64,000 bases of DNA from Struthio camelus (taxonomy: Eukaryota): assembly GCF_040807025.1 (NCBI RefSeq), contig NC_090970.1, positions 837,359 to 901,358 on the forward strand. Direction: 5' to 3'. The number at the start of each line of letters is the position of its first letter. The first letter of the stretch is position 1. The notes under the pieces were generated by a model. It worked only from the letters and a program-made list of their open reading frames with translations, ran no database searches and was not told the DNA's origin. A program made the translations under genes and the position numbers. Below, piece by piece: positions 55,380 to 57,434 of the stretch.

Positions 55380-57335
55380 GGCCGTTGCGGGGAGGGCGGT
55401 ATTTTGGGTGTATTTTGGGTTATTGTGGGTTTTTTTGGTGGATATTTTGGCTTTGGGGGGGGATATTTGGGGTGTATTTGGGTGTATTTAGGGTGACATC
55501 CCTGGAGGAGGAGCTCATGGTCACCATGTCCCAGGGAGGTATTTTGGGGTAACGGGGGCATTTGGGGGGGGTATTTGGGGTTATCGGGCAATTTGGGTGT
55601 AACAGGTTGTTTTTGGGGAGGTATTTAGGGGGTATTTGGGGTCTTGAAGCTGACATGTCCATGGAAGGACCTGGTGGCCACCATGCCCTGGAGAGGGGGT
55701 TGGGGGTGGTATTTGCAGGTATCAGGTTGTAATTAGGGTATTTTGGGGGTATCTGGGGGTATTGGGGGGTATTTAGGGTGTATTTGGGGGTAATGTGGGG
55801 GTTGCAAGGCTGTTTAGGGGTTATTTGGGGGCTTGTTGTGGTATTTTGGGGTATTTTGGGTGTCGGGAGTGTCTGGGTCCCATCCCTGCTCGGGGCCACC
55901 CTGTCCGGGGGTGGGGGGGGCATTTGGGGCAATATTGGGGCATTTTGGCATTTTTCTGGGGATTTCGTGGGGTATTTTGAGGGTGTTTTGGGTGTATCAG
56001 GGTGTTTTGGGGGCATTTAGGGGGTATTTTGGGGTATTCGGGTGCTGTCCCCACAGGAGGACCTGGTCACTGTGACCTCGGGGGCATTTTGGGGGTATTT
56101 TGGGTGTATTTGTGCATGTTGAGGTATGTTTTGGGGGTATTGATGGGGGTATGGTGGTATCTGGCTACCATCCCAACAAGAAGACCTGGTGGCCACCATA
56201 TCCAGAGAGGTATTTTGGGGGCAGTTGGGGCATTTTGGGTGTATTTGTGCACGTTTGGGTATGTTTTGGGTGTATTTATGGATGTTTTGAGGGTGTTGTG
56301 AGGGGTATTTTGGTGTATGGGGGGGTATCTGGGTGTTGTCACTGCAGGAGGACCTCATGGCCACCAGGTCCTGGGGGGTACCTGGGGGTTGTTGGGGCAT
56401 TTTTAGGGTATATTTTGGGGTATTTGAGGTGTATTTGTGCATGTTTAGATGTATTTTGGGTGAATTTGTAAGTATTTTGGGGGTGTTATGAGGGATAGGG
56501 GGGTATCTGGGTGGCGCCCTGCAGGAGGACCTCATGGCCACCATGGCCTGGAAACTATTTTGGGGGTATTTTCTGTGTATTTGGGCATATGTTGGGGGTA
56601 TATTTGGGGTATTTTTGAGTACTGTGGGGGTATCCGGGGGTGTTTTGGGGGTATTTGGGGGTATTTTGGGTATCCAGGCACTGTCCCTGTAGCAGGACCT
56701 CTTGGCCACCATGTCCTGGGGGTTATTTTGGGGATATTTTGCTGTTTTGGGTCTATTTTGGTGTCATTTTGGGGTATTTTGGGGGTATTGCAGGGGTATC
56801 TGGGGCAATTTTGGGGGTAATCGGGGGGATTTGGGGTATCCAGGCGCCATCCCCCGCAGGAGGACCTCATGGCCACCACATCTAGCGGGGCATTTTGAGG
56901 GTATTTTGCTATTTTGGTGTCATTTTGGGGTATTTGGGGGCTATTGCAGGAGTATCTAGGGGGAATTTTGGGGTTAACTGGGGGGATTTGGGGTATCCGG
57001 GTGTTGTCTCTGGAGGAGGACCTCATGGCCACCACATCCTGGGAGCTATTTGGAGGGTATTTTGGGTATGTTTGGGGTATATTGGAGGTACATTTTTGGC
57101 ATTTGTGGGTATTGCGGGGGTATTTGAGGATATTTTGGGGGAAATCAGGGGGCTTTAGGGTGTGTGGGCGCCGTCCCCGCGGGAGGACCTCATGGTCACC
57201 ATGTCCTGGGGGTGGCGTGGGGTATTTTGGGGGTGTTTTTGTGTAATTTGATGTAATTTTTTGGTATTTTGGGGCATTGCGGGGGTATCCGGGGGTATTT
57301 TTGGGGGGGATTTGGGGTATCCGGGCACCGTCCCC
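55380..57335. repeat. About 165-bp tandem repeat of about 11 copies, each containing a decayed copy of the downstream exon's acceptor + first codons (CAGGAGGACCTCATGGCCACCA)
   Basis: Copies at about 55500, 55655, 56050, 56180, 56345, 56520, 56690, 56850, 57010 and 57175. The real exon is at 57340. Confidence 0.8.
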
Positions 57336-57339
57336 ACAG

Positions 57340-57434
57340 GAGGAGCTCGCGGCCAACTCGGCCCTGGTGCAGCAGCGGCGCCGGGCCCTGGCGGCGGCCC
57401 CCAACACCCCCCTCTACTGGGCCATGTACAACAG
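57340..57434 (+). CDS. NDRG2: NDRG2 exon
   Basis: EELAANSALVQQRRRALAAAPNTPLYWAMYN matches human [35 protein letters not shown]. Acceptor tccccacag, donor ag|GTGGGG. Confidence 0.85.

Follow-up and report, generated by a model that had tools for sequence, protein, structure and literature searches.

What does it mean when an intron holds a whole row of look-alikes of the splice acceptor that closes it? The question is raised by intron 7 of the NDRG2 gene of the ostrich, Struthio camelus, which lies within the 64,000 nucleotides (nt) analysed here (assembly GCF_040807025.1, contig NC_090970.1, positions 837,359 to 901,358 of the forward strand; hereafter the window). The intron carries an array of about 11 tandem copies of a segment made up of the final ~130 intron bases and the first 28 bases of exon 8. 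This array is very probably the product of local tandem duplication, the process that in chicken genes has been called 'sequence stuttering' or, where an exon edge is involved, 'exon stuttering'.

The gene itself is readily identified. The exon-like open frames that flank the array encode an NDRG protein (Pfam Ndr, 3.6e-63), their translation matches solved human NDRG2 structures in the PDB at 4.5e-86, and the top database relatives of the translated frames are ostrich and emu NDRG2. The ostrich NDRG2-like isoform X1 (XP_068777970.1) maps onto the window without a mismatch, as 14 coding exons between 49869 and 63179 on the + strand. The junction FSQ/EEL, in which the slash marks the splice site, is found in three of three annotated isoforms, so that in the gene models the acceptor at 57340 is used exclusively. 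Exon 8 is unaltered: its translation is precisely the conserved EELAANS... sequence of the annotation.

Ten clear copies and one partial copy were found in intron 7, and the true junction, ccgtccccacag/GAGGAGCTCGCGGCCAAC at 57340, forms a twelfth, terminal unit that stands 157 base pairs (bp) past the last intronic copy and is in phase with the array. Each unit is a run of short sub-repeats (GGGGTATTTT and variants) punctuated by a complex segment of the form ...GTATC(C/T)GGG..GTCCC.GCAG/GAGGACCTCATGGCCACCATGTCCTGGGG. In the 3' half of the array the units are spaced ~156-177 bp apart, and Tandem Repeats Finder (TRF) reports a period of 167 with 5.1 copies at 56517-57355, a call that extends 16 nt into exon 8. 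An 18-nt core, GAGGACCTCATGGCCACC, has nine matches at three or fewer mismatches, all on the + strand and all inside 55508-57200, against 0.42 expected from shuffled sequence; none of 100 shuffles attained nine. The original prediction, made from the letters alone, had placed about 11 copies of an about 165-bp unit in a feature beginning at 55380, practically where the intron starts (55376), and an exon boundary at 57340; all of these figures were borne out. No match to the core occurs outside intron 7 within the window, and no exact match occurs in the six other loci compared (emu, Cariama, Anser, Cuculus, Tiliqua and Athene). With the core so confined within these sequences, a dispersed repeat or transposable element is unsupported. 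A structured intronic RNA, such as a cluster of small nucleolar RNAs or microRNAs, was also considered and dropped: an Rfam scan of the region gave a chance-level match only (E 0.33), and two units folded worse than shuffled sequence (z = +1.46).

The homology between the units and the true junction is continuous across the boundary, covering ~60 nt on the intron side and 28 nt on the exon side. It stops after CCTGG at 57367, where the exon proceeds with TGCAGCAGCGG and the units proceed with GGGGTATTTT. In a comparison of the exon part alone, the intronic consensus equals the exon at 20 of 28 nt with a local score of 11. When the start of the exon was put through 20000 dinucleotide shuffles this score came up 20 times (p ~0.001), and 257 of the 123856 remaining positions in the window attain it. 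Because the position was fixed beforehand by the phase of the array, no correction for multiple testing is called for. When 26 pairs of an exon edge and its flanking intron in NDRG2 were compared, copies were found at the 5' edge of exon 8 only; the other 25 edges, including the donor edge of exon 7, have no copies in their flanking introns. Together, the shuffle test and the 25 empty controls indicate a specific similarity to this exon edge and not a by-product of composition, so the alignment of the units to the exon boundary is better than chance, as the original prediction had implied, and reaches beyond the core. Units holding the whole intron, donor included, were rejected, since the exon 7 donor edge is without intronic copies.

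Species without the array allow the direction of derivation to be read. The boundary of exon 8 is in the same place in a skink (Tiliqua), Cariama, Anser, Athene and Cuculus; the exon starts with GAGGAGCT (EEL) in the first four and with TCGGAGCT (SEL) in Cuculus. At all five loci the upstream intron is free of exon-edge copies; in Tiliqua everything between exon 6 and exon 8 was scanned, since its gene model skips exon 7, and the Athene intron was scanned for exon-edge copies only. The 28 nt shared by exon and units encode EELAANSAL, which aligns with EELSGNSEL of human NDRG2. The two oldest copies in ostrich and emu read GAGGAGCTC, as the exon does, and the younger, homogenised copies carry GAGGACCTC in the ostrich and GAGAACCTC in the emu. 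Since the same boundary is found in the five array-free loci, the start of exon 8 is ancestral and the intronic copies are derived from it. The comparison thus points firmly from exon to intron and supports the earlier proposal that the units arose by tandem duplication of the 5' end of exon 8.

The orthologous intron of the emu (GCA_036370855.1) has the same architecture, with 12 copies upstream of the true acceptor and an array of period 186, 92% matches and a 372-bp higher order. Ostrich and emu align collinearly over the initial ~360 nt of the intron at 80% identity. Copies 1 and 2 lie in this stretch, ordered alike in both, and are reciprocal best matches between the species. As these two 5'-most copies are orthologous, at least two copies predate the separation of ostrich and emu, which is the deepest split among living palaeognaths and occurred some tens of millions of years ago. 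Within each species the picture differs: the 3' copies of emu are 91-100% identical to one another, and the ostrich copies 67-83%. The 3' part of the array has therefore turned over independently in the two lineages since the split. Given the absence of the array from Galloanserae (Anser), three Neoaves and a lizard, a palaeognath origin is the most economical reading. A protein search aimed at NDRG2 of kiwi, rhea, tinamou and cassowary returned three neognath fragments only.

Arrays of this kind have been described in genes of the chicken dot microchromosomes, in repeat-dense, GC-rich sequence that lacks interspersed repeats, under the name 'sequence stuttering' (PMC12954441, Genome Biol Evol 2026). 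There, introns are full of imperfect local tandem repeats that measure from tens of bases up to hundreds, and in 'exon stuttering' the neighbouring intron carries copies of a lateral exon part together with the adjacent donor or acceptor, the exon itself remaining unchanged; expansions were reported to comprise 1-44 copies and to span 1751 bp at the median, with lengths that differ strongly among individuals (PMC12954441). The ostrich array is a further case of exon stuttering as there described, since every feature examined fits. It has 11 copies over ~1.9 kb, which is inside the reported range of copies and near the median span; a lateral part of exon 8 has been copied with its acceptor into the neighbouring intron and the exon is intact; and the intron has a repeat coverage of 64%, a unit period of 157-177 bp and a GC-rich setting prone to G-quadruplexes. 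NDRG2 belongs to a gene block that the same study places on a dot chromosome: its supplementary table lists NDRG2 beside LRP10 and NRL, assigned to paralogon 10A on chr34 of chicken (PMC12954441). NDRG2 and its intron 7 are not named as a case of stuttering in the text of that paper. Its screen was of chicken and it stresses recent origin and individual variation, whereas the array shared by ostrich and emu has orthologous oldest copies and is absent in the four neognaths sampled. The present comparison rests on one ostrich and one emu sequence, and the length polymorphism is known from chicken.

A second comparison is offered by the human F7 gene, in which the first unit of a 37-bp minisatellite in intron 7 spans the donor of exon 7 and the 5' pseudo-sites within the intron, though functional in principle, are silent in normal transcripts, as studied experimentally (PMC1557585, PLoS Genet 2006). 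In both genes the terminal unit straddles a splice junction, and the true site stands amid look-alike intronic pseudo-sites, which in F7 are normally silent. The ostrich array is, however, the acceptor-side mirror of F7, where the sites are donors. The true site of F7 is the most upstream one and its choice has been explained by 5'-to-3' scanning; in ostrich the true site lies downstream of all eleven others, and because it is the last this explanation does not carry over. The units also differ, being 37 bp with identical sites in F7 and ~165 bp with diverged sites in ostrich. The F7 pseudo-sites are identical to the authentic site, whereas in ostrich only that at 56057 matches, from -10 to +5, and the F7 pseudo-sites have been tested by experiment, those of ostrich being predicted from sequence. 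Tandem duplication of exons can also give rise to alternative or mutually exclusive exons. The ostrich array shares with such cases the local tandem duplication of exon sequence with its acceptor, but only 28 of the 95 nt of the exon were copied, no donor is included and the copies read into stops. With 28 nt and no donor, the copies cannot serve as substitute exons.

A simple series of steps may account for the array. In an ancestor of the living palaeognaths, an event of slippage or unequal exchange would have had its two breakpoints within the G-rich minisatellite of intron 7 and, 28 nt past the acceptor, within exon 8. The segment so duplicated, of ~160 bp, would have taken in almost all of an intron that was short at the time, its acceptor, and exon 8 as far as the ninth codon. 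The downstream copy, still joined to the remainder of exon 8, would have stayed the working acceptor and the upstream copy would have turned intronic, after which unequal exchange among the units would have expanded, contracted and homogenised the array separately in ostrich and emu. Both the duplication mechanism and the short ancestral intron are our inference. Copy 1 lies 132 nt from the donor, approximately one unit length, and many other NDRG2 introns are 81-241 nt long, so the founding unit may have consisted of the exon edge and almost the entire length of a short intron. The surroundings are conducive to slippage or unequal exchange, since the window is dense in repeats and intron 7 (G 39%, C 12%, 64% covered by TRF) has a GC skew of +0.52 and eleven G-quadruplex-type motifs on the sense strand.

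A different first step would be seeding by gene conversion, in which the edge of exon 8 was patched into one unit of a pre-existing ~160-bp minisatellite and spread by turnover, as a passenger of the array and not its founder. The presence of a G-rich minisatellite in this intron in all birds examined, with or without exon copies, would suit such a history, as would units made up mostly of 10-11-bp sub-repeats. We nevertheless consider it improbable, because a tandem duplication that crosses the boundary would be expected to leave just such homology, unbroken at the junction and in phase with it, and because the distance of copy 1 from the donor is close to one unit length. The two accounts differ in the first step alone, and the present-day structure is the same under both.

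Are the copied acceptors used? AG is retained in seven copies, five of which have a pyrimidine at -3 (56057, 56348, 56525, 56693 and 56860). It has been lost in three full copies (55665, 56180 and 57183), and the partial copy lacks the whole acceptor. The view that the upstream copies had decayed into pseudo-acceptors thus holds for these last four, and not for at least three others (56057, 56348 and 56860), which on a crude matrix are as acceptor-like as the true site, with 3' splice-site scores of 1.8, 1.1 and 2.1 against 0.6. Similarly, among the four places at which the original prediction had looked for cryptic acceptors, the copies at 56348, 56525 and 56860 keep CAG and the one near 57180 (57183) has lost its AG (GCGG), and the list had omitted both the best-preserved copy, at 56057, and the TAG of 56693. 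The main difference between the true site and the copies is their downstream context. The true site is followed by 95 nt of real exon and the donor CAG/gtgggg, whereas the copies are followed by G-run sequence within 30 nt and by weak donors, except at 56124. Vertebrate exons are recognised as pairs of acceptor and donor, and G-runs in introns favour intron identity; both would help to silence the copies. In the frame that exon 7 imposes, translation from each of the copies runs into a stop codon after 36-264 nt, and the use of any copy would therefore be unproductive. This includes a hypothetical 67-nt cryptic ('poison') exon at 56057-56123, for which the acceptor of copy 4 would be paired with a donor at 56124: it is not a multiple of three and has an in-frame stop after 63 nt, and its donor score of 4.9 is about that of the authentic NDRG2 donors. 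Most likely, then, the pseudo-acceptors are silent or yield unproductive transcripts only.

Several points weigh against this account of a duplicated and silent array. The splice sites were scored with a rough position matrix and not with a validated model, and on that crude matrix the true acceptor is no stronger than the copies at 56057, 56348 and 56860, so that the scores do not account for the use of the last-transcribed of twelve similar sites. The silence of the pseudo-acceptors is based on gene models and the logic of the sequence only. The similarity of the exon part taken alone, significant as it is, is modest at 71% over 28 nt. The dot-chromosome assignment to chr34 was made in chicken, the ostrich gene lying on a contig of 6.96 Mb, and the palaeognaths sampled are two species, ostrich and emu.

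The pseudo-acceptors could also be read as a regulatory decoy array that selection maintains, its members acting as rival 3' splice sites or as acceptors of poison exons such as 56057-56123, with diversion of transcripts into nonsense-mediated decay tuning NDRG2 expression. We regard this as very unlikely. The array has persisted from before the ostrich-emu split, but the likeness among the emu copies is attributable to recent homogenisation and not to constraint, and the four neognaths have no such array. AG is present in seven ostrich copies and in most emu copies, yet it is altered in three of the ten full ostrich copies and among the copies is no better conserved than the adjacent 18-nt core, so there is no sign of selection on the pseudo-acceptors. 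Just upstream of the true acceptor lies the longest AG-free stretch of intron 7 (57186-57337 on the + strand; consecutive AGs are 154 nt apart here, the mean spacing being 28.5). This we give little weight, because the corresponding interval in emu is just 48 nt and the AG-free zone is therefore not common to both species. Three copies score at least as high as the true site and one of the copies has a plausible downstream donor, but none of the annotated isoforms uses a copy, and the chicken arrays are highly polymorphic in length, which fits neutrality (PMC12954441). A bolder form of the same idea, that the row owes its survival over tens of millions of years to a role as built-in splicing decoy or as poison-exon switch (56057-56123, for example) that sets the amount of productive NDRG2 mRNA, with copy number as a heritable dial of expression, is in our opinion very unlikely.

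Two further readings of the origin can be dealt with briefly. That the array came first and exon 8 gained its acceptor and first codons from the last unit by exonisation, as the continuity of that unit with exon 8 might suggest, is already contradicted by the alignment of EELAANSAL with human NDRG2 and by the same exon 8 start codon in the array-free skink and four neognaths, and we give it next to no credence. Chance or compositional resemblance, to which the low-complexity, G-rich region and the limited identity of the exon part might lend themselves, is made extremely unlikely by the shuffle test at a position preset by the phase of the array, by the 25 empty controls within NDRG2 and by the excess of core matches, and an assembly artefact is as improbable given the same architecture in the independent assembly of a second species, emu. 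Local tandem duplication therefore remains our preferred explanation.

Some observations on the other species and on the rest of the window stand beside this account. The orthologous intron measures 277 nt in Cariama (L002 4023-4299), 1050 nt in Anser (L003 21376-22425), 407 nt in Cuculus (L004 9345-9751) and 4452 nt in Athene (L006 7788-12239). Those of Cariama, Anser and Cuculus are each filled with a G-rich minisatellite of their own (GGGGCACTT..., GGGGTAACTGGGAGTTACT... and GGCACTTATGGGGC..., respectively); such distinct minisatellites in one intron show rapid, lineage-specific turnover. The NDRG2 model of Tiliqua scincoides (L005 12904-13089) seems to skip exon 7 and to run into the intron (...AAHKVRLRMLMRRLKDACLCNRYSA...), probably through an annotation error.

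Tandem repeats make up 77% of the 64,000-nt window, where unique sequence is nearly confined to exons and short introns, and the other long introns of NDRG2 are 70-98% tandem repeat. Introns 3 (52057-53433) and 8 (57435-59322) share a ~10-bp minisatellite in opposite orientation (CCCCCATTGA versus GGGGTCAAT), with 82 inverted pairs whose arms are up to 87 nt long and 72-84% complementary, and which bracket exons 4-8. These repeats could pair in the pre-mRNA, an arrangement that in other genes favours exon skipping or back-splicing. A 21-bp unit (CCCGGACGCCTGGGCCCCTTC or its reverse complement) occurs as at least 12 separate arrays in both orientations, in intergenic sequence and in NDRG2 introns 1 and 2; it is a dispersed minisatellite family, unlike the strictly local origin proposed for stuttering repeats. 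Within a ~9-kb array of 62/124/186-bp units (29079-37788), the TRF rows at 30883-33246 and 34144-36507 are identical at an offset of 3261 bp, which indicates a recently duplicated block of ~3.3 kb. Three neighbouring genes were recognised (Table 1), and their likely human counterparts, the OSGEP, APEX1 and purine nucleoside phosphorylase genes, lie near NDRG2 on human 14q11.2. A 173-bp tandem array at 14864-15545 (3.9 copies, 88% matches) starts ~100 nt past the stop codon of the APEX1-like gene; as a second case of stuttering it was rejected, since it begins after the stop and contains no coding sequence.

Table 1. Features of the window; positions count from its first letter, and a slash marks a splice junction or the corresponding point in a copy.
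Feature	Position	Strand	Description	Basis
21-bp arrays	4-587, 3104-3723, 3999-4929, 10960-12062, 16579-17716, 19846-21118, 23876-25238, 26558-26904, 40229-40940, 48348-49125, 50000-50547, 50973-51917
Neighbour gene	5057-5314	-	TsaD family (OSGEP-like)	Pfam
Neighbour gene	14090-14760	+	Exo_endo_phos (APEX1-like)	Pfam
Neighbour gene	45328-45639	+	PNP_UDP_1 (purine nucleoside phosphorylase-like)	Pfam
NDRG2 exon 7	55319-55375	+	LSGLTSSSTEMILAHLFSQ, ending ...LAHLFSQ	Exact match to XP_068777970.1 residues 164-182; donor CAG/gtgggg
Intron 7	55376-57339	+	1964 nt; G/T-rich 10-11-bp sub-repeats (GGGGTATTTT) and junction copies every ~157-177 bp
Copy 1 (core 55508)	55496-55535	+	cctggag/GAGGAGCTCATGGTCACC; AG retained, -3 = G; emu ortholog L001 8291	Reciprocal best match 80% and collinear alignment
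Copy 2 (core 55665)	55653-55692	+	gtccatgg/AAGGACCTGGTGGCCACC; AG lost; emu ortholog L001 8498	Reciprocal best match 72% and collinear alignment
Copy 3, partial	~55868-55905	+	...cccatccctgctcGGGGCCACCCTGTCCGGGGG; acceptor and first ~14 exon-like nt deleted	Direct reading of sequence
Copy 4 (exon-like part from 56057)	56045-56081	+	ctgtccccacag/GAGGACCTGGTCACTG; equals true acceptor from -10 to +5; 3-nt deletion
Candidate cryptic exon (hypothetical)	56057-56123	+	67 nt; copy 4 acceptor and donor GAG/gtatgt at 56124
Copy 5 (core 56180)	56168-56207	+	catcccaacaa/GAAGACCTGGTGGCCACC; AG to AA
Copy 6 (core 56348)	56336-56375	+	gtcactgcag/GAGGACCTCATGGCCACC; CAG intact
Copy 7 (core 56525)	56513-56552	+	gcgccctgcag/GAGGACCTCATGGCCACC; CAG intact
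Copy 8 (core 56693)	56681-56720	+	gtccctgtag/CAGGACCTCTTGGCCACC; TAG
Copy 9 (core 56860)	56848-56887	+	catcccccgcag/GAGGACCTCATGGCCACC; CAG intact; top crude acceptor score (2.1)
Copy 10 (core 57016)	57004-57043	+	gtctctggag/GAGGACCTCATGGCCACC; AG retained, -3 = G
Copy 11 (core 57183)	57171-57210	+	gtccccgcgg/GAGGACCTCATGGTCACC; AG to GG
Unit 12 (terminal), junction segment	57280-57367	+	True acceptor ccgtccccacag at 57328-57339 and first 28 nt of exon 8
NDRG2 exon 8	57340-57434	+	EELAANSALVQQRRRALAAAPNTPLYWAMYN; starts EELAANSALVQQ...	Exact match to XP_068777970.1 residues 183-213; donor CAG/gtgggg

Taken alone, the array in NDRG2 adds one example to a form of repeat instability that is known from chicken, and for gene prediction in GC-rich regions of bird microchromosomes it is a practical warning. 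Twelve related 3' splice sites in series, of which the last is used, are also a natural substrate for studying how an acceptor is chosen among look-alikes that are transcribed earlier. The age of the array adds a further point, namely that at least some exon-stuttering arrays are long-lived and not merely recent events at the level of populations.

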